This document shows positions 38,548 through 59,226 of a stretch of DNA of 64,000 nt, piece after piece. The position numbers and the translations under genes are program-made. Within the stretch, counting starts at the first letter, position 1. Each line of letters begins with the position of its first letter. Origin of the DNA: an uncultured Muribaculaceae bacterium (GTDB lineage Bacteria; Bacillota_I; Bacilli_A; RF39; UBA660); the NCBI GenBank assembly GCA_964397485.1, contig CAYNHT010000001.1, positions 273,190 to 337,189 on the forward strand. The letters are read 5' to 3'. The notes beneath the pieces are model-generated. The model did no database searches and was not told the DNA's origin. It saw only the letters and a program-made list of their open reading frames with translations.

Positions 38548-38593
38548 TGGTTTCCTATACAGGATTCGAATCTATGACCCGCTGATTAAGAGT
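38548..38593 (-). repeat. Degenerate copy of the tRNA-Lys 3' half; this is the left boundary of the island array.
   Basis: 'tggtttcctatacaggattcgaatctatgacccgctgattaagagtc' aligns with the 3' half of tRNA-Lys at 59066-59111. The T-stem pairing is degraded. Confidence 0.6.
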
Positions 38594-38752
38594 CGCTTTA
38601 AAGCAATATTTTTATTTGTCTTAAAACCTCATAAAGTGTAACAATCATTTATTTAAATAGCATTTTGACTTTTATCTATATTTTGTAATGTTCCCTAATA
38701 TTTTATATTATGCCGGCAAAATGCTGGTATTTCAATGCGTTGTAAATAAACA

Positions 38753-39709
38753 TTATATCTTTTTAGAATGACTGATAAACCCTTTTAATTCATCATAAGC
38801 TTGCTTGTGTAAAAATCCTTCATTATATAAAATTTTCATTTCTTCTTTTAACAAATCTTTGTTCATTTTTCTGTGTCTCAAATAAACCTCATTTATCAAA
38901 TCGATATTTAGACTATCCTTATCAAATTCTTTTATAAATTGAGTAGTTGTTTCAATAATTACATCTTTACTTTTTTTAAGTCTATCATTATATTTTCTCA
39001 ATAATAACGAATTACTATATTCTAAATTCAATAGTTCATTATATACTCTTTTCTTTTTGGATAAAAAGATAATATATTGTAAATAAGTTAACATTATTAA
39101 ATCACAAAGATTTGAAATAATTTCTGTATCCTTATCATTTAAGTTTACAATATTATCTAAATAACCAGCAATTATAGATAAAATAAATATATTATTATTT
39201 CTATAATATCCACCTAAAAGCATAGCATCCTCAGGACTAGATTCGATTTTAATTAGCAAATCTTTGAGAGGATCTGGGTGTGCTATATTAGTAAAATATT
39301 TATATACTTCTTGCAAAGTATTTGCCTTATCACTTATACTCGGTATTTTATCAAATACATTAATTCCAAAAAATTTTTCTTGATTATTAATAATTTCTTC
39401 TTTGTATTCAGTGAAAAATTTTTCTTCCTGGTAATGATTGTAATGAACAGTTTTCATTAATAATTCCAATGCCTCGCGTGATAGAGTTATTCCACTTGTA
39501 ATATTACCTTTTCCTAACAATCGATTCGATTCTATTATTATCCTTAAGGATGCACTTAAATTTAACTTTAAATAACTATCTATTTCGTTTTCCATAATTA
39601 TTCTAATAAATTCTTTAATTAACAACCTAATGAATTGATTATTCCATAATTTAATTTTACTATTTATAGGTTGCTTTTTAAATTTATATGGTATATTCGT
39701 TTTTTTCAT
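38753..39709 (-). CDS. Hypothetical protein translationally coupled to hsdS.
   Basis: A TAATG overlap joins the hsdS stop to this ATG. 318 aa with no recognisable motif. Confidence 0.5.
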   Translation of the reverse strand: MKKTNIPYKFKKQPINSKIKLWNNQFIRLLIKEFIRIIMENEIDSYLKLNLSASLRIIIESNRLLGKGNITSGITLSREALELLMKTVHYNHYQEEKFFTEYKEEIINNQEKFFGINVFDKIPSISDKANTLQEVYKYFTNIAHPDPLKDLLIKIESSPEDAMLLGGYYRNNNIFILSIIAGYLDNIVNLNDKDTEIISNLCDLIMLTYLQYIIFLSKKKRVYNELLNLEYSNSLLLRKYNDRLKKSKDVIIETTTQFIKEFDKDSLNIDLINEVYLRHRKMNKDLLKEEMKILYNEGFLHKQAYDELKGFISHSKKI

Positions 39710-40896
39710 TAGACAAACATTTGTTGCAGTAACCCTATTTTTAATTGAGTTAAGTTACTAAACAATTCTCTTTCCTTCTCAATTTTGAAATCAATTATTG
39801 ATAAAAATTTAGAGATTCTTTTTTGTTCAGAAATTATTGGAACACTTATTTGTAATAACCCTAAATCTTTAAATGAGAGACTTTGCCTTACACTTCCAAT
39901 TAGATACCTTTTAATGCCTTCCTTAAACGAGTGGGTGTTTGTAAAATAATTTAGAAAATCTGGATCTAAGTTAGTTTTAAATACAGTATACATTGGACTT
40001 AATACTCCATTGTCATATTCCTTAAGTAAAGCAATGGATCCCACATTTATTCTCGAAGGATTATAAGCAAAATTATTCCTGTTAATTATTTTGTAATTAT
40101 TTAAATTTGTGCTAGCTACCCTTTTATCAAAATAGTCACTTTGTAAAATAAATCCCTCTTTATTAGTAACACTTAATATTTGATAATTTTTGTTTTCTTT
40201 ATTTTTTATTGAACATTGAATGATAAATTTTTTTAATTTCCCGTTTTCCCATTCTGGATATTCAATTCCAGCATAATCTTTAAATCTAATCCCTTGACTA
40301 AATACCTTTTGCATCATCCCTTTTTTATATCGTTCTAATTTGCCAATCTTATCTTCTTGTAATTCTATTCTTTTATCTACTAATGACAAGAACATTGCTA
40401 TTTTATTTTGTTCTTCTAAACTAGGGGTTTTTATTTTTAGTTCTTTTAAATGACTGTTGTATAAGTGTATAACTGATATTCCCTGAGACAATTTAGCTAT
40501 TTCATTTCTATATTTATTATTTAGAGAATATGAAAGGAAGAGCCCGTTTTCTTTAGTTTTAATTATGTTAATATCGCCGCCTATTGCAATTTTATCATCA
40601 GTATAAATACACGAAGCAGTTGCCAAATCTACCGCAGTCTCCCCTGATGATGGAATTAATATATCATTTCTCTCAGAAAATATTAATTTATCATCAGACG
40701 TAAAATTATTTACTTCAGTTATTTTTTCTTTATATTTAGTATATAATTCGCCATACCTCACACATTTGAAAGCACCATTTTCAACAACTGATGCTTTAGA
40801 TACTCCTTTTCCTTTTGATAGTTTTGCTATTTCAGAAAGACTTATTTCTTTCCACTCACCACTGAATTCTTTAAATCTTAAACTTGGAGTATTCAT
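39709..40896 (-). CDS. hsdS: Type I restriction-modification specificity subunit.
   Basis: 395 aa with two target-recognition halves separated by conserved coiled regions. Flanked by hsdM. Confidence 0.85.
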   Translation of the reverse strand: MNTPSLRFKEFSGEWKEISLSEIAKLSKGKGVSKASVVENGAFKCVRYGELYTKYKEKITEVNNFTSDDKLIFSERNDILIPSSGETAVDLATASCIYTDDKIAIGGDINIIKTKENGLFLSYSLNNKYRNEIAKLSQGISVIHLYNSHLKELKIKTPSLEEQNKIAMFLSLVDKRIELQEDKIGKLERYKKGMMQKVFSQGIRFKDYAGIEYPEWENGKLKKFIIQCSIKNKENKNYQILSVTNKEGFILQSDYFDKRVASTNLNNYKIINRNNFAYNPSRINVGSIALLKEYDNGVLSPMYTVFKTNLDPDFLNYFTNTHSFKEGIKRYLIGSVRQSLSFKDLGLLQISVPIISEQKRISKFLSIIDFKIEKERELFSNLTQLKIGLLQQMFV

Positions 40897-42458
40897 TATA
40901 ATTCCTCCAAACCTAACTCTTTTAAATATACATTTAATTCTTTAGTGACCTCAACTATATCTTCTTCTATAAATTTAAGTGCACTTTGAACTTGTTTTAT
41001 ATCAATAGGCTCTTCTTCTTCAAAAGTATTTACATATCTTGGAATATTTAAGTTATAATCATTTTCTTTTATTTCATCTATTGAAGCTACATGTGCATAT
41101 TTATCTATATCTTTTCTATTTTTATAAGCATTCAATATTTTTTCTATATTTTCCTCTGTTAAAGTATTTTGATTTCTTTGTTTTTCAAATTCTTTAGAAG
41201 CATCTATAAATAAAATATCAGTATTGGTTTTACACTTTTTAAACACTAAAATAACAGTTGGTATGGCAGCTCCATAAAATAAATTTGATGGTAATCCTAT
41301 TACTGTATCAATATAATTTTTTTCTACAATATATTTTCTTATTACATCTTCCGAAGCACCTCTAAAAAGAACTCCGTGAGGTAACACCACCGCCATAACA
41401 CCTTTATCATCTAAAAGGTATAACATGTGTTGAACAAATGCATAATCAGCTGTAGATTTAGGCGCTAATTTTCCATAAGCACTAAATCGTTCATCATCCA
41501 AAAATTTAGGATCACTACTCCAATTAATGCCAAAAGGCGGATTGGCAACTATTACTTCAAATTTCATATTTAAATGTTTTTCATAAGGGTTAGTTAAAGT
41601 ATTGCCATTGTAAATGTTAAATCTATTAAAAGGCACTCCATGAAGTATCATATTCATTCTTGCTAAGTTGTATGTTGTAGAAGTTAATTCTTGTCCATAA
41701 AAACTTCCTACATTAGCTTCTTTAGCTACTCTTAGCAATAATGATCCTGAACCACATGTTGGATCATATACTTTTTTTATTTTATCTTGATTCATCGTTA
41801 CAATTTTAGCTAATATTTTTGATACCTGTTGAGGAGTATAGAATTCACCTGCTTTTTTACCTGCAGTAGCAGCGAATTTACTAATTAAATATTCATACGC
41901 ATCACCAAGTACATCTATTTCACTATCACTATGATTAAAGTTGATTTCATTAACTTTTAGCATTATTGTAGCTATTAGTTTACTTTTATCTTTTTCACCT
42001 TTACCCAGTTTAGAAGAATGCAAGTCCATATCTTCAAATAAATTTTCAAAATCATCTTGACTTGTTGTACCAAGAACAGATTCATTCAATTCATTAATTG
42101 CCTTTTCTAACATTGAAATATCAAATTTATTTTGCTTAATTAATTCAATTAATGAAGAATATAAATATTGCGGTTGAATAACATATCCAATTTCACTGTT
42201 ATTAAGTAATTGCTCAATTAAAGCATTTCTATATTCTTTCTTTTCCCACGCTGCTTTATAGGAAATACTATCTGATTTTAACAAAGTTTTTTCCACATAA
42301 TAAAGCAAATTTTCTGATAAATATCTGTAGAATATTAAACCAAGAATATAGTTTTTAAAATCACTTGCTTCCATACTGCCTCTTAAACTATTAGCCATAT
42401 CCCAAAGTTTAGCATGTAATTCTTTTTGTTGAACACTCTGTTTTTGATTTGTTGTCAT
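40896..42458 (-). CDS. hsdM: Type I R-M N6-adenine DNA methyltransferase subunit.
   Basis: 'VIVANPPFG' (NPPF catalytic motif) and 'DPTCGSGSLL' (motif I). Confidence 0.9.
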   Translation of the reverse strand: MTTNQKQSVQQKELHAKLWDMANSLRGSMEASDFKNYILGLIFYRYLSENLLYYVEKTLLKSDSISYKAAWEKKEYRNALIEQLLNNSEIGYVIQPQYLYSSLIELIKQNKFDISMLEKAINELNESVLGTTSQDDFENLFEDMDLHSSKLGKGEKDKSKLIATIMLKVNEINFNHSDSEIDVLGDAYEYLISKFAATAGKKAGEFYTPQQVSKILAKIVTMNQDKIKKVYDPTCGSGSLLLRVAKEANVGSFYGQELTSTTYNLARMNMILHGVPFNRFNIYNGNTLTNPYEKHLNMKFEVIVANPPFGINWSSDPKFLDDERFSAYGKLAPKSTADYAFVQHMLYLLDDKGVMAVVLPHGVLFRGASEDVIRKYIVEKNYIDTVIGLPSNLFYGAAIPTVILVFKKCKTNTDILFIDASKEFEKQRNQNTLTEENIEKILNAYKNRKDIDKYAHVASIDEIKENDYNLNIPRYVNTFEEEEPIDIKQVQSALKFIEEDIVEVTKELNVYLKELGLEEL

Positions 42459-42469
42459 TTTATCACTCC

Positions 42470-43198
42470 TTATTTAGAAAGTAAATTACTTAAATTATTA
42501 GTTCTTTGATCAAGTAAATATGCTTCATCATTTAAATCATAGAATCCATTTGCAATTGCAAATAAAATTATCCCAGTTATTGTTGGTGTAAATGAAAATG
42601 AATCTTGATCAATTTGCCAATTACGAATAAGAGAATTTGCAAATAGACATCTCATGTAGTTTGCTATATTATTTATATTTAGCCTTGTTCTATATTCTGA
42701 CAATTCTTTCATCACACTATTGGTTTGCTTTGTAATTTTTAACCTATTTAATTCTTGACTTAAACCTATATTAGAATTATTTCCATGACATTGTTTAAAA
42801 AATATATAATATAAGTAATAGTGCAATTGAATTTCATAACTACTCATAGAACTTAAAATATTAGTATAATACTTCATCTGATCGTCTTCGCCATTTGTAG
42901 ACCTTGACGATATTAATATACCAGCATAATACTCTTGAATAATATCTTCTTCACATAAACTTCCTTCATAAATAACATCGTTTAAAATTCTCGGATTTAC
43001 ACTTTTACCATCTTCATTTTTCTCAAAATTTATTTCTGGATTTTTATCTATAGCTTTCTGAAATATCTTATTTAAGTTGTCATATCTTTTTTCAAGATCA
43101 AAAGCCAATTTTTTCCCTAACATATCAAAGGAAGGTCCTAATAATTTTTTTAAAGCAATAGTAGATACTCCAGCTACTGTTAAAACATTAACATCCAT
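42470..43198 (-). CDS. Hypothetical protein embedded between hsdR and hsdM.
   Basis: 242 aa with 11-nt gaps to both neighbours. No recognisable motif. Confidence 0.5.
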   Translation of the reverse strand: MDVNVLTVAGVSTIALKKLLGPSFDMLGKKLAFDLEKRYDNLNKIFQKAIDKNPEINFEKNEDGKSVNPRILNDVIYEGSLCEEDIIQEYYAGILISSRSTNGEDDQMKYYTNILSSMSSYEIQLHYYLYYIFFKQCHGNNSNIGLSQELNRLKITKQTNSVMKELSEYRTRLNINNIANYMRCLFANSLIRNWQIDQDSFSFTPTITGIILFAIANGFYDLNDEAYLLDQRTNNLSNLLSK

Positions 43199-43209
43199 TT
43201 TATCACCAC

Positions 43210-45963
43210 CTACATATATTTTTTAACGGTATTTATTATAAAATCTTTTATACTCTGAACTACACCTATTTTTTGTAAAAAGGGCAACTCTATTTCTTTA
43301 TTTATTTCACCAATAGGTATAACACCACTATACTCGAATTCTTCAATAAAGTCACTTAATTTTTCATAAGAAATATTATATTCTTTAGCCATTCTTTCTA
43401 TTTCTCTAACTCTTTCTTGAGTTAAGTGATTGTTATATGCTTCATCGATAGATTTATCCTTATCTAAGACTGGAACAACCTTATTTAGGAAATTTTTAAT
43501 AAGTTCAGATTTGAGTCTTAATTCCTCATTATCTGTTTTATCTATTTTATCCTCAATATCGTTTATATCTTTTCTCAATGTTTCTTTATTACTTAAATCT
43601 AAGTTTTTAATTAAATCTAAAATATATGAAACATTTATTTTGTCAGTGCGCATCAACTCAAGCTCAAAATCTATATCATCTAATATAGTTTCCTCATCTT
43701 TTTGAGCTTGTCTAGCTAAATACGTATACTTGCTCCTATAATCTTGATATTCTTGGCTTGATATTAAATTAACACTTGATTCAAAATTAAATTTTGGAAA
43801 AGTTTCTAATTTAACCAAAATTCTAGCAACTTCTCTAAATGCTAGGACAAATTCTCGTTTATCTTCTTCTCTTTCTAAATTATTAATACTGTCTAACGTT
43901 GGAGCTATCTTTTTAAGTTTAGATAAAGCTTTTTCAAATTGCTCTAAATATTCATCATAGTTTTTCATAAGAACAGTATCAACATTGTTAGTTTGAGAGA
44001 ATAAAGTAATAGCTTCGTCAACTGCTTTTTTTCCCGTTTGGTAGCAGATTATATTGCCATAAGGTTTTGTTGATAATTCCACTCTATTAGTACGAGAAAA
44101 GGCTTGAATTAAATTATGATTATTCAATTTTTTATCAACATATAATGTGTTTAATCTTTTTGAATCAAATCCCGTTAAAAACATATTAACGACTAAAAGG
44201 ATATCAATCTCACCACTCTTTACCTTTTTCGTTACATCTTTAAAGTAACTTTCAAAGGTATCTGTTGAGTAATTTCTATTAAAGAGTTTATTATAGTCCT
44301 TTATAATACGTTCTAAGCTATCTCTCGAATGCTCATCTCTTCCCTCAGAGTCTTCATTATTACCATAAGTAAAAATAGCGGATATTTTTAAATCTTGATT
44401 AATACTTTTAAACATATCATAGTACTTTACTAACATTGGAATGCTTTGAACTGCAAAAATAGCATTGTACATTCTGTTTCTTGTTTTGGTATTATGAATA
44501 TCTACTATATTATTTGCGATTATAGCAATTCTCTCATCTGCCATTAAAGCTTCTTCCGTATCAATAGCTTCTACCCTTTTATCTTCAAGTCCTTCTTTAT
44601 AATTTGTAGTACTAACATAGTCAACAGAGAAACCCAATACATTTTCGTCTTTTATTGCATCTTTTATTAGATATGTATGTAAACACTTTTCAAAGATATC
44701 CGCAGTTGTTCTTCCATCAATTGCTTTGTTTTCGATAAATCTTGGAGTACCAGTAAACCCAAAATATTGGGCTTTTTCAAAATGAACATTTATGACCTTA
44801 TGCATTTCTCCAAACTGTGATCTATGACATTCATCAATAATGAATATTACTTTTTCATTTTTATATTTTTCTAATATACTGTTATATCTTGGATTTTTAA
44901 TAGCATTAGCCATTTTTTGAATAGTAGTTATAATTAAATTTTTGGCTGGATCTTCTATTTGTTTAACAAGCGTATCAGTTTTATCAGTTGTATCAACACA
45001 ACCAGGATCAAATTTATTAAATTCTTCTAAAGTTTGTCCATCTAAATCTTTTCTATCAACTAAGAAAAAAACCTTATTAATATTTGGCTCATCTTTTAAT
45101 AACTGACTTGTTTTAAAAGATGTTAATGTTTTACCAGAACCAGTTGTATGCCAAACATATCCGTTATTATTGGTTTCAGTAGCCCTATTTAATATTTCTT
45201 CTGTTGCATACACCTGATAAGGTCTCATAATCATTAAAGCCTTATCAGTTTCATTTAACACCATATATCTAGCTATCATTTTTGAAATATGACATTTATC
45301 TAAAAAATAAAATGCAAAGTCGCTTAAATTACTTATTCTTTCGTTTTTAACATCAGTCCAGTGAAATGTATGTGAAAAATTCAAATCACTATCACCATTG
45401 GAAAAGTACTTTGTATCTACTCCGTTGCTAATAACAAACAATTGAATATATCTATATAATCCTGTAAATGAATGTTTCCTATATCTTTGAATTTGGTTAA
45501 AAGCTTCTTTAAAATCTAATCCCCTTCTTTTTAATTCGATTTGAACTAAGGGAAGCCCGTTAATTAAAATGGTTACATCATATCGACTGGTATACTTACC
45601 AATAACAGTAGTTTGATTAGTAATTTGAAATAAATTTTTGCACCATTGTTTAGAATTAAACAACTCAATAAAAATAGTTTTCCCATTATCTCGGGTTATA
45701 CTTTGTAATTGTCTTAATTCTTTAGCACTATTAAAAACACCCTTACCAGAGATGATTGTCACTAATCTATCAAATTCCCTGTCTGACAATTCAATTCCAT
45801 CAAGTCTTTTTAAATTAAATTTGTTAACTTGTTTTCTAAAGTTATCAAGAAGATTTTGTTCATTATTTATAATTACTCTTTCGTAACCTTGTTTTACTAA
45901 CTGTTCAATTAAATTATACTCTAATCTTGCTTCGCTTTCATAAGCACTACTCATATTAATCAC
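43210..45963 (-). CDS. hsdR: Type I restriction enzyme R subunit.
   Basis: 'VWHTTGSGKTLTSF' Walker A and 'IIDECHRSQ' DEAH-like box. 917 aa. Confidence 0.9.
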   Translation of the reverse strand: MINMSSAYESEARLEYNLIEQLVKQGYERVIINNEQNLLDNFRKQVNKFNLKRLDGIELSDREFDRLVTIISGKGVFNSAKELRQLQSITRDNGKTIFIELFNSKQWCKNLFQITNQTTVIGKYTSRYDVTILINGLPLVQIELKRRGLDFKEAFNQIQRYRKHSFTGLYRYIQLFVISNGVDTKYFSNGDSDLNFSHTFHWTDVKNERISNLSDFAFYFLDKCHISKMIARYMVLNETDKALMIMRPYQVYATEEILNRATETNNNGYVWHTTGSGKTLTSFKTSQLLKDEPNINKVFFLVDRKDLDGQTLEEFNKFDPGCVDTTDKTDTLVKQIEDPAKNLIITTIQKMANAIKNPRYNSILEKYKNEKVIFIIDECHRSQFGEMHKVINVHFEKAQYFGFTGTPRFIENKAIDGRTTADIFEKCLHTYLIKDAIKDENVLGFSVDYVSTTNYKEGLEDKRVEAIDTEEALMADERIAIIANNIVDIHNTKTRNRMYNAIFAVQSIPMLVKYYDMFKSINQDLKISAIFTYGNNEDSEGRDEHSRDSLERIIKDYNKLFNRNYSTDTFESYFKDVTKKVKSGEIDILLVVNMFLTGFDSKRLNTLYVDKKLNNHNLIQAFSRTNRVELSTKPYGNIICYQTGKKAVDEAITLFSQTNNVDTVLMKNYDEYLEQFEKALSKLKKIAPTLDSINNLEREEDKREFVLAFREVARILVKLETFPKFNFESSVNLISSQEYQDYRSKYTYLARQAQKDEETILDDIDFELELMRTDKINVSYILDLIKNLDLSNKETLRKDINDIEDKIDKTDNEELRLKSELIKNFLNKVVPVLDKDKSIDEAYNNHLTQERVREIERMAKEYNISYEKLSDFIEEFEYSGVIPIGEINKEIELPFLQKIGVVQSIKDFIINTVKKYM

Positions 45964-46370
45964 TCCAGACTAATTTCTATATAAATTATACCACATTTTG
46001 TGGTTTTTTTAATGCATTTTAGAAAATTTCACACTGCATCTCTATAACAAACTTGGGCTTTTTTCTAGAATATATTTTGTTTTTTGTAAATGACACTGAA
46101 TAGTGCTAATTATTTGTTTTATAACGATATAGATAAAACAAAAAAAAGAGCTTGTAAAACAAATAAAGATATATTCTTCTCATTGATTTTATAATAAAAA
46201 TTATTGCCGAGTAAAATCACGACACTATCCCAAAAAATTAAAAAGAGTTTTAATTAAAAAAATTATAATACAATTTATTTATTAAGAAAACATTACAACG
46301 AGTTGATTGCTTTATTCATATTCTATACAATAAAGTACTTCAAATATAAAATATTAAAATGTGTTTTTTA

Positions 46371-46461
46371 ATACAAAAAAGATTACAATTTTTTGCAATC
46401 CTTCTAATTTCATATTTGGTGCCATTATAGAATTCAGCCCTATGACTCACTTATTAAGAGT
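46371..46461. repeat. Island-boundary module copy 1: A-run/hairpin/T-run terminator plus a degenerate tRNA-Lys 3'-half copy (46427-46461).
   Basis: 'aaaaaagattacaattttttgcaatccttctaatttcatatttggtgccattatagaattcagccctatgactcacttattaagagtg'. Confidence 0.55.
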
Positions 46462-46966
46462 GCTTCAATGGGGTCATCGTAGGTTATTTCAACTGAAACA
46501 AATTTGTATATTTATGGAGATTGTTATCATTTTATCTTTTTCTCGCATTTTATAACATTACATATTGTTTTAAAAAATCGTATGATATCAGTTAATTAAG
46601 CAATACAACGAATTTGTAAAAATGTAGGTAATGAAACATCTAAAAAAATACCTAGATTAAAACTGTTTCTTTATCATATCCTACAAATGAAGTATAAATA
46701 TTATTAATAGTGTATTGAGTGAAGCAGATAATATAATCTCCCATTACCAGCCATGGAAAAATATAATTAAATATTCAAAAAGAGAACGTCGTGAAGCTAT
46801 CTTAAGAGATGCGGAGTAAACCCAAATTATTAGTAATAGTGTTTGTTGGCATGGGAAATGACACCAATTCAAAATATTAATTGTCATGTATTTGAATCTT
46901 TATAAAAAATCTGTAAATAAAAGTAATTCTGTTTTAATTTTGGTTACAGATAAAAGAGTAAAATAA

Positions 46967-47410
46967 TTATTTTTTTGAACTCAAAATTGATAATCTGACA
47001 ATGAGAGTTAAAAGCATTAATTGAAATAGAAACGTAAATATATATATTGATTCTCGCAAAATTAATAAAGAATCTTTAAGCTCTGACGGAATTTTTATGT
47101 CAAAATTAAAGACACCTAGTAAAAACACGAGGAATGTAAATTTAACCATATTATTAAAATACATTAGAAACACTTCATACAAATCCGATTTAAAGTTATA
47201 AAATTTTGTTATCAAAGGTTTGGCTGTTATTCTAAAAGTTATTAAGAATGGAGTCATTATTAATATAAATTCAAAAATTGTATCTAAATCAACTGAAAAG
47301 AAACTCATAAAATTATCACTTACGCTAAAAATAAGCGACAAAATAAAACTAACAAAAATATATTTATATACACCTGTCACTTTATACATTTTTTCTAAAA
47401 CTTTATGCAT
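46967..47410 (-). CDS. Small polytopic membrane protein (partner of the upstream 277-aa protein).
   Basis: Four TM helices. The start overlaps the stop of the upstream gene. Confidence 0.45.
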   Translation of the reverse strand: MHKVLEKMYKVTGVYKYIFVSFILSLIFSVSDNFMSFFSVDLDTIFEFILIMTPFLITFRITAKPLITKFYNFKSDLYEVFLMYFNNMVKFTFLVFLLGVFNFDIKIPSELKDSLLILRESIYIFTFLFQLMLLTLIVRLSILSSKK

Positions 47411-48540: not shown

Positions 48541-48616
48541 TATTTAGTGGTGGCTATATAGTAGATAATCTTTTATCATACAAAGAATATCATACACAGT
48601 CGATAAAAGCCCCGCC

Positions 48617-50350: not shown

Positions 50351-51445
50351 TCAAAAATCATTTAGGCATTGTTGTGATTTTAATATATCATTTTCAAGTA
50401 AAACCAAAATATTATTAAGAGCTGTTTCAATTTTAATTTTATAATCGTTATCACTAAAGCTGAACTCTTGTTGAATTAAACCTAAAAACATTAATTTGTT
50501 ATTATAGTATCTTTCGTTGATACTATTTTTCATATCATAATGAAACATACAGTTCCTAAAGTTTCTATTTTTAAAATATTGTTGTCCTTTTATCAAGTCT
50601 TTATATTTTTTAATATCAAATGGGCAATTAACAAATATTTCATTATCACACATTTTAGAAATATCACTATGGATGGTGTCCCATATAATATAAGCAAGTC
50701 TATACCTTAATGTTGATTTGCTAGGTAGTGTATTACAAATTATTACTTGATAATAGTTAATTTTACATATCATATCTAATAGGCTTAAACCTATATTAAC
50801 ATCAATGTCATTTTTAAATAAACCATTACTATTTTTTGTTGTATTGAAATCTTTATATTTTACTAGAAAAGAATTAATATCGATATTGTCATTTTGTTCA
50901 ACAGAAAAGCATTTCATTAAAGCACTTAATACTTGTCCCTGTTCTTTTCCAAAATCAAATAAATGTTGATTTAATTCTTCTTTGTTTTTCAAAAGGGGCT
51001 TATATAATGTAGCGAATAGAAATGTGTTTCCTATCGGTTTAACATCAATGTAGTATACACCTAAATTATCTACTAAATCTTTTAAAAACCTATGTTCCTT
51101 TATAAATGAACTCATATTAATAAAATCTTCATGTGTTTGTTCATTTAATGTATTTATTTTTTCATATCTTTTTTCAAATGGTAATTCATCACTTTTAGTA
51201 CGACCTCTAATGGATTTAATGGCTTTTTTATACCTTAATTCTTTTCTTAATTCAACATTGTAATTTTCTTCTATATAATCAATTATTCCTAAATTTAATA
51301 AGTTTAAGTAATTAAACCAAAACATTGAAATAACAGCATTTTGGGTTTTAGAAATTGTAATGCACATTTTATAAATATCTTTAAGTTCTTCTTTAATAAG
51401 GATGTTAGTATTATCAGTTATATCAATTGTAAGTTCTATTTCCAT
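50351..51445 (-). CDS. Hypothetical protein with a C-terminal R-N-x-x-x-H (HEPN-like) motif.
   Basis: 364 aa; 'FRNCMFH'. Second gene of a two-gene operon. Confidence 0.5.
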   Translation of the reverse strand: MEIELTIDITDNTNILIKEELKDIYKMCITISKTQNAVISMFWFNYLNLLNLGIIDYIEENYNVELRKELRYKKAIKSIRGRTKSDELPFEKRYEKINTLNEQTHEDFINMSSFIKEHRFLKDLVDNLGVYYIDVKPIGNTFLFATLYKPLLKNKEELNQHLFDFGKEQGQVLSALMKCFSVEQNDNIDINSFLVKYKDFNTTKNSNGLFKNDIDVNIGLSLLDMICKINYYQVIICNTLPSKSTLRYRLAYIIWDTIHSDISKMCDNEIFVNCPFDIKKYKDLIKGQQYFKNRNFRNCMFHYDMKNSINERYYNNKLMFLGLIQQEFSFSDNDYKIKIETALNNILVLLENDILKSQQCLNDF

Positions 51446-51499: not shown

Positions 51500-52750
51500 T
51501 TATTTTATATGCTTTTTATCATAATATAAATTATAATTTAATCGTTCCTTAATAGTCTTTTGTGAAACACCAATTTTATTATATAAATAACCAAGAAGTA
51601 AATCTTCTAAAAAATATGAAAACCTAAATAGTTCATCATTTTCCATCTTCTTTAATGGTTGAGAATGGTGATTAAAATAATTCCTACCATCAGCAATTTT
51701 TCTTGATATAGTGTGTATCCTTGTCTTTTTAAATCCCCATATATAATTCAGATTTTTAATCATACTTTCAATTCTATCTGAAAGAGTTATACCAAAACCA
51801 GGTTTTCCATTATCAATCCAAACTTGTTTTGCATTAACATTGTCATATTCTTTTGACATATATTCTATTATTTGATTACAATTTAAAAATCTATTCATTC
51901 TTGATGTTTCTTTTTCTATCATATCTAAGTAAATATCAAATATTGGAGTTATATCTTTAAAAACAACTAAAAATTGTTCATATATAAGTTTAAAATCATT
52001 TTCCAAATCTTCTAATGTCAATACAAATTGTTCATATTCATGTTGTAAAAATTCGTTTTTGTAATCTTTATCTTCAAAGTAAGTTAAATTCATAAACAAA
52101 ATATTATTATCATTTATTTTAATTTCTTTAATTCCAATTATTCTTTTTGAAATTATTCCTATAAAACATTTTAAAGCCCATACATCTTGTATTGTGTTTT
52201 GTAATGTCTGTTTGTTCCTATATTCGATTGTAAAACTCACTCTTTTTTTACATTTATATATTGAGTGTCCATGTGTTGTCAAATTTCCTATAAGTATTGT
52301 AAGTTTATAATCATTAAAATTAAATTCGTTATGTTTATACTTAAATATTGGATTCAAATTTTCGCCATAGTCATAAAAAGGACTTATTGAAAAATTTTCT
52401 AAATCATAGTATTCAAAATTAATTGATTTAATCTTTTTGTTCTTTTTAGAAGTATATTTCATTCCTTCAACAAACATATCAATCTTAAAAGTCATTGAAA
52501 ATAATTCAGTTGCTCCATTTGCAGAACTAGAACTACTTACTAAGTTAAAAAATGTAATGTTCCTACCTTCAATTTTTCCATTTACAATTGGAAATGAGTT
52601 TTTTAGTTTTAAATATGTATCTCTGTCAACACCATCTATTAATTGAAGTATTAATTGATTATTTTTATTTACTAATAAAGCCGAATATTCTTTATTTAAT
52701 AATGATATTTTAAGATTATTATTGTTATATTTTTCTAATAATTCATTCAT
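51500..52750 (-). CDS. Hypothetical protein with a C-terminal R-N-x-x-x-H (HEPN-like) motif.
   Basis: 416 aa; 'GRNYFNHH'. First gene of the operon, 55 nt upstream of the 364-aa gene. Confidence 0.5.
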   Translation of the reverse strand: MNELLEKYNNNNLKISLLNKEYSALLVNKNNQLILQLIDGVDRDTYLKLKNSFPIVNGKIEGRNITFFNLVSSSSSANGATELFSMTFKIDMFVEGMKYTSKKNKKIKSINFEYYDLENFSISPFYDYGENLNPIFKYKHNEFNFNDYKLTILIGNLTTHGHSIYKCKKRVSFTIEYRNKQTLQNTIQDVWALKCFIGIISKRIIGIKEIKINDNNILFMNLTYFEDKDYKNEFLQHEYEQFVLTLEDLENDFKLIYEQFLVVFKDITPIFDIYLDMIEKETSRMNRFLNCNQIIEYMSKEYDNVNAKQVWIDNGKPGFGITLSDRIESMIKNLNYIWGFKKTRIHTISRKIADGRNYFNHHSQPLKKMENDELFRFSYFLEDLLLGYLYNKIGVSQKTIKERLNYNLYYDKKHIK

Positions 52751-52884: not shown

Positions 52885-53094
52885 CTATTTTATTATAGTG
52901 ATTAAATCTCCAGGTTCGCAATTTAAATGATTACAAAATTCTATTATGTATTTAAACGAAATCGATTTTGTTTCTCCTCTAATAATTTTGTTTAAATTTC
53001 TTGAAGTAATATTCATTTGTTGACATAACCAATATTTTGTTTTTCCATTTTTTTCTAATAATTCAACTATATTTAATTTTATCATTACCAACAC
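52885..53094 (-). CDS. XRE/Cro-type HTH regulator.
   Basis: 'TKYWLCQQMNITSRNLNKIIRGE' is an HTH_3 motif. Confidence 0.6.
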   Translation of the reverse strand: MLVMIKLNIVELLEKNGKTKYWLCQQMNITSRNLNKIIRGETKSISFKYIIEFCNHLNCEPGDLITIIK

Positions 53095-53803: not shown

Positions 53804-54859
53804 TTAGTCTGAACTTCTGATTTCTGAATCCCTTATATATTCTTCTTTCAATTCCCAATTCCAACATTTATTTTTCTGAAAAGGTTTTTTGCAAACTATT
53901 TTCCTTGCTTTTTCAATAGATAATCTTTCAAAGCCACTTATATCTGCATTATCTAATATCTCTTTCATAGGTGCAGTATGATTATTAATAGAAGATAGAT
54001 AATCTACTAACCATTGTTTAGCATTTATCGTTGTAGAGTCGTTATCATAGGTAAATAAGCCGTCTATATTTAATGGTTCTCTTTCTTCAAGCCATGCAAT
54101 ACCTTTATCAGTTATTTCAAAAACATATTCCTTTAGGTTCTGTTCACTCGAATAATTACCCTTGATAGGACATAATAACCTTTGTTTTTCATTATCAGGG
54201 TTTCTTGTAATGCCTAAAACAACTCTAGCAGCTGAAGCAAATCCAGCCGAACCCATAGTTTTATATAGTGCTTTAGTATTACTTTTATTCATGTGCATTA
54301 CCCCAATAATAGCGATTTCAAAGTATCTAGCAATTAAACTTAATGGAGTTAATATATCATACACTTGTTTATATTTATCAATGTCAGTTCCATTCATATA
54401 ACTTGTTAAAGGGTCAATAACAATTAGTTTTGGTTGTATCTCGATAATCTTATCTATCAAATTATTTATATCACTTAAATCCAGCCCATTTTCTATACTA
54501 CTATCAATGTAGAAAACATTATTTACATCAGCACCACTATCCTCCAATCTATAAATTGTTATCTGTTCTGGGTCATCTTCAAGATTTTGAAATAATATCT
54601 TTTGTGGTTCTAATACTTGGCTATCAAAAGGAAACGATATACCATTAGATAATCTTGAAGTTATATCACATGTAACAAAACTCTTTCCAAGTCCTGCATC
54701 ACCGATTAATAGGGTTAGATACCCTATTGGTATTTTGCCATTCCACAACCATTTTAACTCCTTCTTTTGAACATTAGCAAAGCATTTAATAACTTGCTCT
54801 TTTTTCAATAAATCTTCTTTAATTTTCTTTTTTATTTCTTCACTAGTTAATTTTTCCAT
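53804..54859 (-). CDS. RecA-fold AAA ATPase (RepA/AAA_25-like replication protein of mobile elements).
   Basis: Walker A 'GDAGLGKSF', Walker B 'LIVIDPLTSY'. RBS 'aaggaga'. Confidence 0.6.
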   Translation of the reverse strand: MEKLTSEEIKKKIKEDLLKKEQVIKCFANVQKKELKWLWNGKIPIGYLTLLIGDAGLGKSFVTCDITSRLSNGISFPFDSQVLEPQKILFQNLEDDPEQITIYRLEDSGADVNNVFYIDSSIENGLDLSDINNLIDKIIEIQPKLIVIDPLTSYMNGTDIDKYKQVYDILTPLSLIARYFEIAIIGVMHMNKSNTKALYKTMGSAGFASAARVVLGITRNPDNEKQRLLCPIKGNYSSEQNLKEYVFEITDKGIAWLEEREPLNIDGLFTYDNDSTTINAKQWLVDYLSSINNHTAPMKEILDNADISGFERLSIEKARKIVCKKPFQKNKCWNWELKEEYIRDSEIRSSD

Positions 54860-54864: not shown

Positions 54865-55053
54865 TTATTCTCCTTTATTTCTATTTTCTTTTAACCAATT
54901 TTCTATGTCTTGTTTATCAAACATAATCTTTTTACCAATTCTAAAATATGGTATTTCGCTAGAACGAATTAACTTTCTAACAAATGCTTCACTAATATGT
55001 AAATAGATAGCAACTTCTTTTACATTAAAAACATCTCTAGCCAATATCGGCAC
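54865..55053 (-). CDS. Excisionase-like small HTH (HTH_17) protein; the true start is probably the TTG at 55042-55044.
   Basis: 'VKEVAIYLHISEAFVRKLIRSSEIPYFRIGKKIMFDKQDIENWL' is the Xis/MerR-like pattern. Confidence 0.6.
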   Translation of the reverse strand: MPILARDVFNVKEVAIYLHISEAFVRKLIRSSEIPYFRIGKKIMFDKQDIENWLKENRNKGE

Positions 55054-55320
55054 CTCCTAACTGTATTCTTGCATTTTTTTAGTTACACTCTTGGCAACAA
55101 GCATACTCATTTTATACTAGAGGCAATTGCTTGTTCAAGCAATTTTAGTGAGGTTTTTCAATTGCTTTTGATTGTGTCGTTAATAAAAATTATTAACTTT
55201 TTTAGTGTCCAATTGTCTATTTTAATTTTTATTTAAAATACTATTGACATCTTGTCCAACTGTGTGCGATACTGTCATCAGAACACACAAGTGGAGTTCA
55301 AAAGAAAGGAAGTTAAAGTT

Positions 55321-56031
55321 ATGTCAACCAATACAAACAAAGTAAATCTAAAGTATCAATTATTTGCAGATAGGCTTATAGAATTAAGGAATGAAAGAAA
55401 ATTGACCCAAGATGAAGTATCAAAAGGAATAGGAATTAGTAAATCTTCAATTCAAAAGTATGAAGGTATGACACGATTTCCACAAGGTTACGACTTAATA
55501 GAAATAGCCAATTTCTTTGAAGTATCAGTTGAATATTTACTTGGTAAAAGTGAATATAAAAAAAACCAATACACTAGTCTAAGTGAACTTGGTTTGAATG
55601 ATAGAGCAATAGATACTTTAATAAAAATGAAACAAGAAGTTTATAAAAATGGCAAGTTGGATTATAAACCCTATATGTTCTTAAATGCTCTAAATTTACT
55701 GCTTGATATAGATAACAAAAGATATATTTATAAGATAGGTAAAATGCTAATTCAAAAAAGAGCTGAAGACCAATTTAAAAAGCGAAACAACGAAGAATTA
55801 GAAACATATCAATATAACTTGTTTAGATTAAACAATATGTTTGATAGATTTTTTAAAGAAAATTACGATAAAGTCGATTGTAGTTTCATTAATGAAATAG
55901 AAAGCGAAAAAGAAATAAAAAATTTCTTAACACAAGTTAATATATTAGATAATGATATGGTAAAAAATTGGCAAGATTACTTATTAACACCAATACAAAA
56001 AAAATTACTTGAAAATAAAGATAGTGAATAA
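55321..56031 (+). CDS. cI-like XRE HTH repressor with a C-terminal extension.
   Basis: 'KLTQDEVSKGIGISKSSIQKYEGMTRFPQGYDLIEIANFFEVSVEYLLG'. Divergent from the xis-like gene. Confidence 0.65.
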   Translation: MSTNTNKVNLKYQLFADRLIELRNERKLTQDEVSKGIGISKSSIQKYEGMTRFPQGYDLIEIANFFEVSVEYLLGKSEYKKNQYTSLSELGLNDRAIDTLIKMKQEVYKNGKLDYKPYMFLNALNLLLDIDNKRYIYKIGKMLIQKRAEDQFKKRNNEELETYQYNLFRLNNMFDRFFKENYDKVDCSFINEIESEKEIKNFLTQVNILDNDMVKNWQDYLLTPIQKKLLENKDSE

Positions 56032-56146: not shown

Positions 56147-57280
56147 ATGAGTGTTAAATTAATTGATAAAAATAAATATATGATTGAAGCCTTTATCGGT
56201 TATGATAGTAAAGGCAAAAAAATAAGACAATATAAAACTTTCAATGGTACAGAAAGACAAGCAAAAGTTATGGAAAACGAAATGATACAAAAGTATAAAA
56301 ACCAAGTTCTTAATGATATTGATTATACAAAAATCACTTTTGAAGAATTAAGCAAAATTTATATGGAAAGACATGCTAAAAATCTAGCCCCTACAACCTA
56401 TATAGGTTATTCGAAAATGTTAGAAGTTATAAATGATAATTTTGGCAAAAGAAAGTTAACCAATTTAAACCCTTTAATACTAGAAGATTTTTATTGTAAA
56501 TTAAGAGAAAGGCGACAACCTAAAAAACTAACTGAAAATACAATATTACATTATTATGTTTTAATTGGTGCAATACTTAATAAAGCCAAAAGATGGAAGA
56601 TAATAAGCGATAACCCAAATGAAGCAATTGATAGACCTAAAAAGGAAAAGAAAGAATCCAAATATTACAATGTTGAAGAAACCAAGCAGTTGTTAAAAGC
56701 ATTAGAATGTGAACCTTTAAAATATCAGACTTTAATTAGATTAGCAATTGATAGTGGTGCTAGAGTTGGTGAAATATTAGGATTAGAATGGGACGATATT
56801 AATTTTAATTTGGGTTATATTAGTATTAATAAAGTTATATATGCAATTAAGGGTGGAGTTAGAGAAAAAGACAAACCAAAAAATAATAGTTCTATAAGAC
56901 CAATAACATTAATGGAAGAAACTTTAGATTTATTAAAACAATTTAAAGAACAACAAGAAGAAACAAAAATTAAATTAGGTATAAAATGGTTAGGTTGCAA
57001 AAAAGTATTTACTTCCGAAGAAGGTTGGTATATGCACCCTTGCACACCTAGACATATTCTAGGAAAGATAATTAATAAATATGATTTACCAAAAATCAAT
57101 TTTCATTCTTTAAGGCATACTTCGGCATCATTGCAGATAGCATTAGGCATTCACATGAAAATCATTAGTAAAAGACTTGGTCACAGTAGCAGTAGCACCA
57201 CAGATATGATTTATAGCCATGTTTCAAGCACTCTGCAAAGCGAAGTAACTAATAAAATGGGGAAACTACTAAATAGTTAA
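56147..57280 (+). CDS. int: Tyrosine site-specific integrase.
   Basis: C-terminal 'HSLRHTSASLQIALGIHMKIISKRLGHSSSSTTDMIYSHV' carries the R..H..R..Y catalytic residues. An N-terminal SAM-like domain is present. Confidence 0.9.
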   Translation: MSVKLIDKNKYMIEAFIGYDSKGKKIRQYKTFNGTERQAKVMENEMIQKYKNQVLNDIDYTKITFEELSKIYMERHAKNLAPTTYIGYSKMLEVINDNFGKRKLTNLNPLILEDFYCKLRERRQPKKLTENTILHYYVLIGAILNKAKRWKIISDNPNEAIDRPKKEKKESKYYNVEETKQLLKALECEPLKYQTLIRLAIDSGARVGEILGLEWDDINFNLGYISINKVIYAIKGGVREKDKPKNNSSIRPITLMEETLDLLKQFKEQQEETKIKLGIKWLGCKKVFTSEEGWYMHPCTPRHILGKIINKYDLPKINFHSLRHTSASLQIALGIHMKIISKRLGHSSSSTTDMIYSHVSSTLQSEVTNKMGKLLNS

Positions 57281-57303
57281 AACAAAAGAAAATGGCTATC
57301 AGA

Positions 57304-58989
57304 TTAGCCATTTTTATTTTCGTTTTGTATTGCTATTGCAGTAATAAGTCCAAAATATAAAACTAGTAATTTTTCCACATTACCATAATTAAAATCTTTC
57401 ATTTTTAGATTTTTAAAATGTGCTAAATTATTTCTAATTCCCTCGCCTACTTCATTATCATCATTAATTAAATAAAACCTTAACAACTTTATATGATTAA
57501 TTCCTATAATATCATTTATTATAGAATTATCTTTATTCAATAAAACTCCCAAAGAAATAGAATTTTCGTTTATATACCCATTTTCATCGACCTTGCTTTT
57601 ATATATTAATCTCAATGATTTTTCAATCAAACCACATGTAAGCATTTCAATTGAATAAGCAATAGCACTTAATTGAATAGATAATTTTTGTTCTTTATCA
57701 CTTTTAATAATAGAAACATAAAGCAGAATAAGGTTAAATAACATTTCGTTATTTTCAATTATTTCATTTTCCACAAAATTAACAGTGTGATAATTGAATA
57801 CTTTGGTAAGTCTTCTAGTTACTTCAGAAAACAACATATTTGTGAGTTCATCATTATTTAAAATGTAATTTACTTTTAACATATGGTGTTGTAGTTCTAT
57901 ACCTAGAGTGGTCTGTATACTTGGTGTAAATAACTTGTTTGTTTTAACATTTGCAATAGAAACAAAATCAGTAATACTTGGTTTGCTATCTCTAACTAAT
58001 TGGTCAAAGAAATGAGTAAATGTTTTACCATCAGAGTAATTAGTTAAGTATACCAACATCTTTGCTGCTTTTGTTCCAATATCGGATTTTTCTATCATAT
58101 CAACATAACTTTTAATGTTTATTTCGTATGAAAATGATTGCCCATGATTTTGTAAATAATCATCAAGTAAATTGTTCTGTTCATCTAATTTAAATTGCCA
58201 TTCTTTTGCTTTTGAATGCTTTATTGTATCTAAAAATCGAAATAATTTAACAACATAACTTTGACTTATAATAGCATCCTCAACTTTTAAATCTTTCGTT
58301 TGTTCTTCAATATAATTTATGAGAAATGTAACTATTTCTTCAAATTTATTACTAAACCATGCTTGATTTTGTAAAGAAACTAATATATCAAATATATCTT
58401 CCAATCTAAATGTAACTAATTTATTTAATGTGTCATTTGAAAAGAACAGATCTGCTAAATCATTGTTTTCTTTTACAACATTGATAAATCTATCAAAACT
58501 GTCTATTAACAAATGAGAACAATGAGATATTAAGCATTTCCATGTATCTTTATCGATTCCACTTCTATACTTCAAACAATATGTAACAGTTTCAATTTTT
58601 ATATCAATATCATGATGAGTGACATCATCTTCGTATTCGCATATTATTTGAATATTATCATTAATGAAACTAAATATATCTTTTCGTTTATAGTTGTTTA
58701 AGATACCATTAAAAGTAGTAATTATATTACTAAACTCTTGTTTCATTTCATCTTTTACAATCTCAACATAAGTATCGTATTCAACTAATTTATACAAAAA
58801 AATATAATCGATATAGTTTTCTAAACTAGTTATGGAATAATCATTAATAGAGTTATAATAATTAATAATTATACTATTATTTTCTAGTAATTTTGTTATT
58901 TCAATTCCTGTTGCCCAATCATCATAAGTATATCTTCTTAACCCAATGTGTATTTTATTGTCATCTAATAATTTAAATATATTTCCCAT
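57304..58989 (-). CDS. Large hypothetical protein (561 aa) with a C-terminal R-N-x-x-x-H (HEPN-like) motif.
   Basis: 'EGIRNNLAHFKN' lies near the C-terminus. Positioned between int and tRNA-Lys. Confidence 0.5.
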   Translation of the reverse strand: MGNIFKLLDDNKIHIGLRRYTYDDWATGIEITKLLENNSIIINYYNSINDYSITSLENYIDYIFLYKLVEYDTYVEIVKDEMKQEFSNIITTFNGILNNYKRKDIFSFINDNIQIICEYEDDVTHHDIDIKIETVTYCLKYRSGIDKDTWKCLISHCSHLLIDSFDRFINVVKENNDLADLFFSNDTLNKLVTFRLEDIFDILVSLQNQAWFSNKFEEIVTFLINYIEEQTKDLKVEDAIISQSYVVKLFRFLDTIKHSKAKEWQFKLDEQNNLLDDYLQNHGQSFSYEINIKSYVDMIEKSDIGTKAAKMLVYLTNYSDGKTFTHFFDQLVRDSKPSITDFVSIANVKTNKLFTPSIQTTLGIELQHHMLKVNYILNNDELTNMLFSEVTRRLTKVFNYHTVNFVENEIIENNEMLFNLILLYVSIIKSDKEQKLSIQLSAIAYSIEMLTCGLIEKSLRLIYKSKVDENGYINENSISLGVLLNKDNSIINDIIGINHIKLLRFYLINDDNEVGEGIRNNLAHFKNLKMKDFNYGNVEKLLVLYFGLITAIAIQNENKNG

Positions 58990-59065
58990 TTTACACTTCC
59001 CTCGTTATTTAAATTATATCATAAAAAAAGAGTTTCTATTTTAGTAGAACTCTTTATATACATTT

Positions 59066-59141
59066 TGGTGTCCCCAGCAGGACTCGAACCTGCGACAATC
59101 TGATTAAGAGTCAGGAGCTCTACCAACTGAGCTATGGAGAC
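59066..59141 (-). tRNA. tRNA-Lys(CTT).
   Basis: Cloverleaf with anticodon loop 'ctcttaa' and T-arm gcagg/cctgc. CCA is encoded. Confidence 0.85.
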
Positions 59142-59186
59142 ATTTTGAAGAAAAATCACTAGTTTTTTACTCGGTTATCACTCGCC

Positions 59187-59226
59187 GATTAAGAGTCAGT
59201 TGCTCTACCAGCTGAGCTAACGAGAC
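59187..59226 (-). pseudogene. Orphan 5' half of a tRNA-Lys(CTT) (acceptor 5' strand through the anticodon loop).
   Basis: The reverse complement 'gtctcgttagctcagctggtagagcaactgactcttaatc' is complementary (acceptor and anticodon stems) to the 3'-half copy at 50080-50125. Confidence 0.65.

Follow-up and report, generated by a model that had tools for sequence, protein, structure and literature searches.

The 64,000-nt window analyzed here (contig CAYNHT010000001.1, positions 273,190 to 337,189) holds a cluster of tRNA-Lys(CTT) pieces, and between these lie genes that include a candidate integrative element at 50126-59186, which we call the terminal element. All coordinates are those of the window unless another genome is named, and the tRNA sense of the whole cluster is the minus strand. 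In that direction, the host tRNA-Val is followed after 10 nt by the 5′ half of a tRNA-Lys ending in ACTCTTAATC, then by a 45-nt spacer that begins with GGCGAGTG, a complete tRNA-Lys (tRNA_E), a terminator, and a 561-aa open reading frame (ORF). Behind this ORF come the genes for an integrase (int), a repressor, an excisionase, an AAA_25 ATPase, a helix-turn-helix (HTH) protein, ApeA, and a 364-aa product, and then an arm with two TCGGAC motifs. After the arm, ACTCTTAATC appears a second time, joined to the tRNA-Lys 3′ half at 50080, and a terminator follows. The tRNA pieces and their immediate surroundings are the following.

59237..59313, minus strand: host tRNA-Val(GAC), called by ARAGORN and Rfam; first gene of the host Val-Lys pair
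59187..59226, minus strand: orphan 5′ half of the host tRNA-Lys(CTT), positions 1-40 (profile E = 3.4e-14); attL junction
59142..59186, minus strand: attL spacer of the element, 45 nt, GGCGAGTG...AAAAAACTAGTGATTTTT; homologous to both ends of a 138-nt spacer in a related element (L005, below)
59066..59141, minus strand: tRNA_E, a complete element-borne tRNA-Lys(CTT), called by ARAGORN; Rfam tRNA, 68.7 bits
50080..50125, minus strand: 3′ half of the split tRNA-Lys; core at 50116-50125, acceptor strand ACGGGAC
50041..50079, minus strand: spacer and terminator hairpin after the 3′ half at 50080
46418..46461, minus strand: decayed tRNA-Lys 3′ half, putative attR-type scar
46375..46417: spacer and terminator of the 46418 scar, homologous to 50041-50079
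38548..38593, minus strand: decayed tRNA-Lys 3′ half, leftmost putative scar

To find the pieces, we used tRNA-Lys 3′-half and 5′-half profiles built solely from halves of other genomes. The 3′-half profile matched 50080-50124 (E = 7.7e-15), 59066-59110 (E = 9.2e-9), and 38548-38592 (E = 4.7e-8), and it gave no further scars to the left of 38548. When the spacer and terminator are included, 46375-46460 matches 50042-50124 with an E value of 9e-7. The 12-mer CTGATTAAGAGT, with at most one mismatch, has five sites in the window, all on one strand (38582, 46450, 50114, 59100, and 59185), against 0.51 expected; none of 100 shuffles gets to five. Similarity among all copies stops at one common base, the A of ACTCTTAATC. 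A first-pass annotation of this DNA had described four copies of the tRNA-Lys 3′ half and one orphan 5′ half; the pieces, their places, and their common boundary hold up, as the profiles and the above-chance count of CTGATTAAGAGT show. Two details change. The third copy, given there as 46427-46461, exists and starts at 46418, and the 3′ half of the intact gene is not an independent copy, being cargo of the element.

The orphan 5′ half, with the acceptor strand GTCTCGT and the core ACTCTTAATC at its 3′ end (59187-59196), fits the 3′ half at 50080. When the two are joined, ARAGORN finds a 76-nt tRNA-Lys(CTT) with 21 of 21 cloverleaf pairs, as the first-pass annotation had proposed for these two pieces. 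Joining the same 5′ half to the 38548 copy leaves four non-pairs; with the 46418 copy no tRNA is called, nor is one called for the attL junction as it stands. Only the 10 bp of ACTCTTAATC, in the anticodon loop, make up the common core. What had been a single gene now stands as two pieces, the orphan 5′ half and the 3′ half at 50080, set 9,061 bp apart, and within the intervening DNA lies another complete tRNA-Lys(CTT). This inner gene, tRNA_E, has an acceptor stem of its own, GTCTCCA/TGGGGAC, which is self-consistent; its cloverleaf contains one C27-A43 non-pair. Direct reading of the orphan 5′ half against the 3′ strand of this intact gene gives mismatches at 2 of 7 acceptor pairs. The intact gene at 59066-59141 had been taken for the integration target. 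It is instead element cargo, 45 nt inside the attL junction and at the same relative place in L005. Its variable loop reads ATTGTC, against GTGGGTC in host-type genes, and TTGTC is common to the tRNA_E of L005. Since the window tRNA_E and that of L005 share TTGTC, the element tRNAs form a lineage of their own.

A scan based on an alignment of 30 integrase homologs, with each species represented by a single genome, gave 79 loci. The same design, a split host tRNA gene with a replacement inside the insert (split-and-replace), recurs elsewhere in no fewer than seven genomes, of which five have it at tRNA-Lys(CTT) and two have it at tRNA-Ser(GCT). The most informative match is L005 (with L009), the Bacilli metagenome-assembled genome contig JBKDZP010000008.1, with an integrase 91% identical to that of the window, a Ddl 62% identical, and a different left flank. 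There, the orphan 5′ half at 12063-12102 runs into ACTCTTAATC-GGCGAGTG, the 138-nt spacer ends with AAAAAACTAGTGATTTTT, and an intact tRNA-Lys lies at 11849-11924; at the far side a TCGGAC-repeat arm is followed by the core and by a 3′ half at 3878-3922. The L005 halves (GTCTCCG/CGGAGAC) pair with each other and not with the internal tRNA (GTCTCCT/AGGGGAC). The chromosomal context of L005 is a different one, and since the tRNA and the spacer ends recur there together with the element, tRNA_E belongs to the element. Split-and-replace at tRNA-Lys(CTT) is also found in L015, L022 (a closed 1.31-Mb chromosome), and L025, and L013 has the attL side of such an element on a contig that ends before attR. 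At tRNA-Ser(GCT), with the core CCTGCTAAGG, the design occurs in L042 (1904-2067 and 11267-11327) and L062 (2428-2580 and 11293-11322). Wherever a contig holds both the orphan 5′ half and the distal 3′ half, L042 and L062 included, the two complement each other. The common cores of these elements measure 10-20 bp, and the paired arm repeats differ by subgroup, being TCGGAC, TATGCAAAA, or TTCGGCACC.

A further copy of the element, L006, has 97.3% nucleotide identity to that of the window over 5.3 kb and is bordered by another tRNA-Lys 3′ half and by a flank that is unrelated. Because this near-identical copy adjoins another tRNA-Lys 3′ half, the element moved recently between different target genes. 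In a neighbor-joining tree of the integrases, restoring and replace types are interleaved, and the replace type occurs in at least four clades. Restoring-type relatives of the window integrase are common, with targets in tRNA-Met, Thr, Tyr, and Pro and, in L010, tRNA-Lys(CTT). In another locus, L045, an intact tRNA-Arg(TCT) (17617-17693) is preceded, at a distance of about 125 nt, by an orphan tRNA-Arg(TCT) 5′ half (17452-17491; 97.5% identity over 40 nt). Replacement may extend here to a third isotype; the pair lies near the family integrase through which the locus entered the scan but is not linked to it.

The five element-borne tRNA-Lys genes have 99% cloverleaf pairing, and both sides have changed in 12 of the 21 pairs, which none of 500 shuffles reaches. 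This pattern indicates that the element-borne tRNAs are kept as working tRNAs. A promoter-like site, TTGAAA-17-TACAAT, is located at 59355-59327, upstream of tRNA-Val, and the 45-nt attL spacer (59142-59186) has no promoter-like match. The spacer between core and tRNA_E measures about 28-45 nt in the window, L022, L025, L042, and L062. Since this spacer is short and the promoter-like site is found only upstream of tRNA-Val, the geometry suggests that transcription of tRNA_E probably starts at the host tRNA promoter and reads through the orphan 5′ half.

The first-pass annotation had placed an integrase-bearing element between the two halves of the split gene, and a tyrosine integrase is indeed encoded there. 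The terminal element contains the following genes and arm.

57304..58989, minus strand: 561-aa protein with no family match, in a variable cargo slot between tRNA_E and int
56147..57280, plus strand: tyrosine integrase (PF00589, 1e-22; PF14659; PF13102; SAM-like N-terminal domain; phrog_1, 1e-69)
55252..56031, plus strand: cI-like HTH repressor
54865..55053, minus strand: HTH_17 excisionase-like protein (phrog_66)
53804..54859, minus strand: AAA_25 ATPase that resembles the helicase part of primase/helicases; presumed replication protein
52885..53094, minus strand: small HTH_26 regulator
51500..52750, minus strand: ApeA (ApeA_NTD1 and Apea-like HEPN domain; PADLOC candidate defense family PDC-S58)
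50351..51445, minus strand: 364-aa cargo protein with no family match
50126..50350, minus strand: attR arm of the element with a TCGGAC repeat pair; arm conserved in L005, L006, and L007

The TCGGAC pair of the attR arm reads as GTCCGA on the plus strand at 50243-50248 and 50254-50259, and we presume that these repeats are arm-type integrase sites. The cargo slot between tRNA and int holds the 561-aa ORF in the window and an LDcluster4/LOG-like gene in L005. Compared with PHROGs and Pfam, the element proteins include only integration, regulation, and replication functions and no virion or lysis genes. The nearest integrase is 34.7% identical in a phage collection and 44% identical in IMG/VR. 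Three element proteins, of 201 aa (149 aa as called in other assemblies), 364 aa, and 561 aa, had no match in the libraries scanned. The terminal element is a small integrative element with defense-type cargo, perhaps a satellite. Its cargo differs in L006, which has an extra DUF4238 cassette before the attR arm. The sequence TGTGTGCCGATTAAT flanks this cassette on both sides (L006 5300-5325 and 6640-6665), and the related GGGTGCCGATTAT stands after the last cargo gene in the window (50330-50350); the two may mark a cassette-exchange boundary for cargo.

Taking these data together, we put the probability at about 80% that 50126-59186 is an integrative element of about 9.06 kb (9,061 bp) with non-restoring (“tRNA-dependent”) integration. 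In the mechanism we propose, the two sites recombined by Int would be attP (arm-ACTCTTAATC-spacer-tRNA_E) and the anticodon loop in the tRNA-Lys(CTT) gene of the host. The two junctions stand in the DNA, and the 10-bp core ACTCTTAATC is all that attP would have in common with the host tRNA. The predicted parental sites read ...GGTAGAGCAACTGACTCTTAATCAGTGGGTCATAGGTTCG... for attB and ...AATAAGTGCCTTTTAAAACTCTTAATCGGCGAGTGATAACCGAG... for attP. After such a reaction the host gene is left as 59187-59226 and 50080-50125, and neither junction rebuilds a tRNA. In its place downstream of tRNA-Val stands tRNA_E, intact, which would be expressed there and would supply the lost and presumably necessary function. 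Int, with the HTH_17 excisionase-like protein, could excise the element, and the halves would then rejoin into a perfect tRNA.

Beyond the 50080 3′ half lie two segments that end at the decayed halves and contain defense-type genes.

38594..46417, minus strand: segment 1, integrase-less; type I restriction-modification (R-M) operon, Abi_alpha, and a 318-aa protein
43210-45963, minus strand: hsdR, strong Pfam match
42470-43198, minus strand: Abi_alpha, between hsdR and hsdM
40896-42458, minus strand: hsdM, strong Pfam match
39709-40896, minus strand: hsdS, strong Pfam match
38753-39709, minus strand: 318-aa protein with no family match
46462..50079, minus strand: segment 2, integrase-less; DUF4238, 277-aa, and 157-aa proteins
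48617-49798, minus strand: DUF4238 protein
47403-48236, minus strand: 277-aa protein with no family match
46967-47440, minus strand: 157-aa protein with no family match

HsdR, HsdM, and HsdS are encoded together in segment 1, which makes it a type I R-M system. Homologs of its hsdR and hsdM, 59-68% identical, occur in L072 (6-3601), less than 10 kb from a 37%-identical integrase next to tRNA-Met; the type I R-M of segment 1 may travel as cargo of this integrase family. Within segment 2, the spacer and terminator that follow the tRNA halves occur a third time, at 48474-48525 (CAAATATGAAATTA and a hairpin); this copy resembles 46375-46417 and 50041-50079 but has no tRNA half. The match of the terminator relic at 48474-48512 is marginal (E of about 0.05-0.1). 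This relic could be a further, partly deleted junction that divides segment 2. An apparent arm-like repeat nearby, at 48399-48457 (D4), was rejected as not significant (E = 3.1). On direct sequence comparison, the 50080 3′ half and the L005 tRNA_E have the same T arm, and this 3′ half may itself come from an element.

Arrays of this kind are seen at related sites. In L005, just downstream of the 3′ half and terminator, positions 2646-3444 hold a truncated integrase with 82% nucleotide identity to the window int. This is apparently the remnant of an older, restoring-type relative, and elements seem to stack at that site too; because the truncated gene lies downstream of the 3′ half, the tRNA split in L005 had already been rebuilt by that older relative. 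At the same ddl-linked tRNA-Lys(CTT), L010 carries a restoring-type element with a 58%-identical integrase (intact tRNA at 17082-17157, identical distal copy at 2033-2081) and an extra internal 3′-half scar at 13654-13691 (E = 5e-6). Since L010 has this extra scar, arrays recur at the ddl-linked tRNA-Lys.

The window can be read in the same way. The 46418 and 38548 copies would be older attR-type scars made at the same core. Related elements of the restoring type would have integrated earlier, each bringing a 3′ half and a terminator, and later lost their integrases. What is left of them would be the defense-type cargo, type I R-M with Abi in one case and DUF4238 with genes of no recognizable family in the other. 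The replace-type element would have come last, entering the hybrid tRNA left by earlier events. One or two restoring-type integrations, with later loss of the integrase, followed by the replace-type element is the most economical history. It also accounts for three 3′ halves beside a single orphan 5′ half. Serial integration is our best reading of the older scars, and it is unproven, since the array is the same in all of the roughly 20 contigs of the species. The tandem array of integrated elements proposed in the first-pass annotation stands for the terminal element; since an integrase is found in only one of the three segments, it is conjectural for two thirds of the region.

The array was also said to have core genes on both flanks. 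On the right, this is borne out: the synteny of tRNA-Val and ddl-murF is conserved in L005, L010, and L011. On the left, it is doubtful. The supposed HD hydrolase is a 342-aa protein (37418-38446) without a Pfam or NCBIfam match, and a homolog 55% identical to it lies inside the L005 element, next to attR (L005 4154-5161); a decayed paralog is found just outside that element (1442-2448). A metagenome scan with the 342-aa protein gave relatives of at most 59% identity only, without synteny and with no integrase nearby. The protein may be island cargo and not a core gene. Like the 561-, 364-, 318-, 277-, and 157-aa proteins, it had nothing informative in Pfam, PADLOC, PHROGs, or NCBIfam.

Several observations count against our account of the locus. 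The first-pass annotation had proposed a search for an empty tRNA-Lys site, a check on its own reading that the locus does not pass. Exact-protein look-ups with Ddl, the 342-aa left-flank protein, and the 277-aa island protein gave about 20-21 contigs each, all with the same arrangement, and an empty site was found in none of these roughly 20 contigs of the species, which may not be independent samples. It is the L006 copy (97%) that shows the terminal element to be mobile. In the nearest other genomes, Ddl is only about 62-65% identical, and no empty site is visible in these next relatives because they are too distant. A search for the excised form with the attP/attL motif ACTCTTAATCGGCGAGTG found no match in IMG/VR. 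The window attL arm does not have the TCGGAC pair that L005 has there, and for this reason the window copy may be unable to excise or may excise poorly. The genome, of which 64 kb were read, may contain a tRNA-Lys(UUU) gene or another CTT gene outside the window, and the need for tRNA_E would then be less. For the older scars, a tblastn search of 38000-50200 with 132 proteins, mostly integrase-family homologs, detected no integrase remnants, and no arm-type repeats occur beside the old scars in 38594-50079. Base composition does not separate the islands from their flanks, with GC at about 0.22-0.30 throughout. Finally, the 46418 copy is marginal on the tRNA profile alone, with a weak match of the 3′-half profile at 46439-46460 (E = 0.2).

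A rival reading is integration of the classical serial kind, with the intact gene at 59066-59141 as the host target, regenerated by a 3′ half carried on attP, and the orphan 5′ half as part of a second interrupted host tRNA-Lys. Four 3′ halves in the same orientation with one boundary fit this well, and so do the many restoring-type relatives of the integrase, that of L010 at tRNA-Lys(CTT) among them. However, the 50080 half complements the orphan 5′ half perfectly, whereas the orphan and the intact gene clash in their acceptor stem, and the intact gene has the orphan 5′ half on one side and the element genes on the other, hence is inside the inserted segment. The spacer ends and the tRNA travel with the element into the other chromosomal context of L005, and the same nesting is seen in five other genomes (L015, L022, L025, L042, and L062). 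We consider classical serial integration quite improbable, and the notion of two tandem host tRNA-Lys genes was rejected, as the intact gene is inside the insert and travels with the element in L005. Still harder to credit is that the repeats are local duplications of the tRNA 3′ end and terminator, made by slippage or unequal recombination, and that the accessory genes came otherwise. Segments without an integrase and an arrangement identical in all sampled contigs would suit such duplications, but all copies end at the same base of the core, which is the crossover site of the integrase family present at the locus; the element-side sequence of each scar is unrelated to the sequence that flanks the host tRNA; and the genes between are typical island cargo, as L072 illustrates, where type I R-M homologs (59-68%) lie less than 10 kb from a related integrase. 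The halves of the host tRNA-Lys might, lastly, be expressed separately and joined or annealed in trans, as in the split tRNA genes of Nanoarchaeum. They are still perfectly complementary, yet they have no complementary leader or trailer sequences, a conserved and covarying complete element tRNA would be needless, and the old scars decay as unused DNA would. We know of no bacterial trans-joining pathway for split tRNA genes, and we find this explanation scarcely believable.

A more serious contender leaves the terminal element as described and concerns 38594-50079, which, instead of two or three separate old elements, would be one composite island, the product of recombination or deletion within an array, or the result of entry at an existing attR core; the number and order of events would then be unreadable from the scars. 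Neither segment there has an integrase or an arm site, and the terminator and spacer relic at 48474-48525, without a tRNA half, suggests rearrangement. A second element can enter at either restored core, and arrays recombine internally (PMC7192596). On the other hand, the core boundary is exact at every scar and every scar has a terminator of its own, the simplest sign of separate attR junctions, and stepwise arrays are found at the same kind of site in L005 and L010. A composite origin for this part is, in our judgment, unlikely, though well ahead of the other three.

A broader hypothesis can be put forward, which we hold tentatively and would sooner doubt than back. Satellite-like defense islands of uncultured low-GC Bacilli, without phage structural genes, may repeatedly have adopted tRNA-replacing integration, with a cassette abutting attP that takes the promoter of the host operon; addiction and allele replacement would follow. 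The basis for repeated adoption is the presence of the replace type in at least four integrase clades, with Lys-CTT and Ser-GCT as targets. If this is true, imprecise loss of the island would cost the cell its only copy of that tRNA, a built-in addiction device. A decayed island would leave a foreign tRNA allele behind, which would amount to horizontal replacement of core tRNA genes, and the replaced gene could be targeted again. The L015 tRNA_E has an acceptor stem (GGGCTGT/ACAGCCC) and a 3′ end that are the same as in the resident tRNA-Lys of L062 and in the 3′ half split off in L029. This sharing among L015, L062, and L029, together with the T arm common to the 50080 half and L005, hints at replacement by foreign alleles.

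Other features of the window and its relatives deserve mention. L174, an 8-kb Logan contig, starts 9 nt past the end of the 50080 3′ half (window position of about 50071), and this start may reflect either a break in the assembly at the repeat or heterogeneous junctions in the sample. The window contains no partial copies of its tRNA-Ser(GCT) (14199-14289), and this gene seems to be free of insertions. At 34843-35604 lies a heliorhodopsin gene (PF18761, the family given for its identical counterpart in L003); this genome, of about 25% GC, also encodes N_methyl pilin-like proteins. The heliorhodopsin and pilin-like genes are a possible clue to the lifestyle of the organism.

Among known systems, the closest is the tRNA-dependent lysogeny described by Guerrero-Bustamante and Hatfull (mBio 2024; PMC10865867) in phages Fionnbharth/K4, cluster L, CQ2, DL, and Gaia. 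Genetic experiments demonstrated it in mycobacteriophages, its presence in other actinobacteriophages was inferred, and related integrases switch between restoring and non-restoring modes (PMC10865867, Fig. 6 and Table 2). The same paper cites the Lactobacillus johnsonii prophage Lj965 as a likely case outside the Actinobacteria. Judged from its DNA, the terminal element has five features of this kind of integration, including a tyrosine integrase, an attB in a host tRNA gene (often tRNA-Lys in the phages), a short common core (about 8-17 bp there, 10 bp here) with no tRNA rebuilt, and an element tRNA with the same anticodon. Paired arm-type repeats flank attP in both, and restoring and non-restoring modes are interleaved among close integrases, here in the neighbor-joining tree. 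The differences are equally clear. The carrier measures about 9 kb and has no phage structural genes, and thus is not a temperate phage in the strict sense; the hosts are uncultured low-GC Bacilli, and the targets are Lys(CTT) and Ser(GCT). Dependence on the element tRNA is, in our case, a supposition. The tRNA of Fionnbharth overlaps gene 37, has a demonstrated promoter, and lies outside the int-attP fragment of integration plasmids, to which it was added separately, whereas the tRNA here is about 28-150 nt from the attP core and lands in a host tRNA operon.

The locus also resembles the islands and tandem arrays at tRNA genes found by Islander/TIGER (PMC4383910, PMC7192596). It shares with them integration in the anticodon loop, displaced 3′ fragments as direct repeats at element ends, several scars in the same orientation at one hot spot, and defense-type cargo. 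Such arrays form as each integration leaves a restored core at either end of the element, and new elements can enter at both (PMC7192596). In this respect, tandem scars with R-M and Abi cargo at a tRNA hot spot are ordinary. Unlike those elements, the terminal element does not regenerate its target and leaves an orphan 5′ half, which classical arrays never do, and two of the three segments have no integrase where classical arrays have one per unit. Replacement of a gene by an island has precedents in the island encoding transfer-messenger RNA (tmRNA) in the Rhodobacter tmRNA gene and in islands that inactivate hrpB and carry another hrpB (PMC7192596). There, too, the target loses its function and a homolog brought in by the element takes its place; here, by contrast, the target is a tRNA, and the whole replacement gene sits right at the junction. 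With phage-inducible chromosomal island (PICI) satellites and small integrative mobilizable elements, the terminal element has in common int, a cI-like repressor, an excisionase, a primase/helicase-like ATPase, a size of about 9 kb, defense-type cargo, and no capsid genes. It differs from them in that no packaging or capsid-redirection genes, relaxase, or oriT were identified; three of its proteins match no family, and it is at most a candidate member of these groups.

Among the matches listed in a literature search on tRNA-dependent lysogeny, none, judged by title and abstract, dealt with non-phage elements or with uncultured Bacilli. The elements described here would extend tRNA-dependent integration from actinobacterial temperate phages to small non-phage elements of uncultured Bacilli, at two isotypes. 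This matters for annotation: finders of the Islander type, which expect a regenerated tRNA and a displaced fragment, would misplace the boundary of such an element and mistake its tRNA for a host gene. It also points to a way in which foreign alleles could take the place of core tRNA genes. For low-GC Firmicutes or Mollicutes-like organisms, the compact int-attP-tRNA cassette (an integrase of about 1.3 kb and an attP/tRNA region of about 300 bp) could be used as a tool for integration. Integration of the replace type was described only recently, and what is new here is its carrier, its host group, and a second tRNA isotype.

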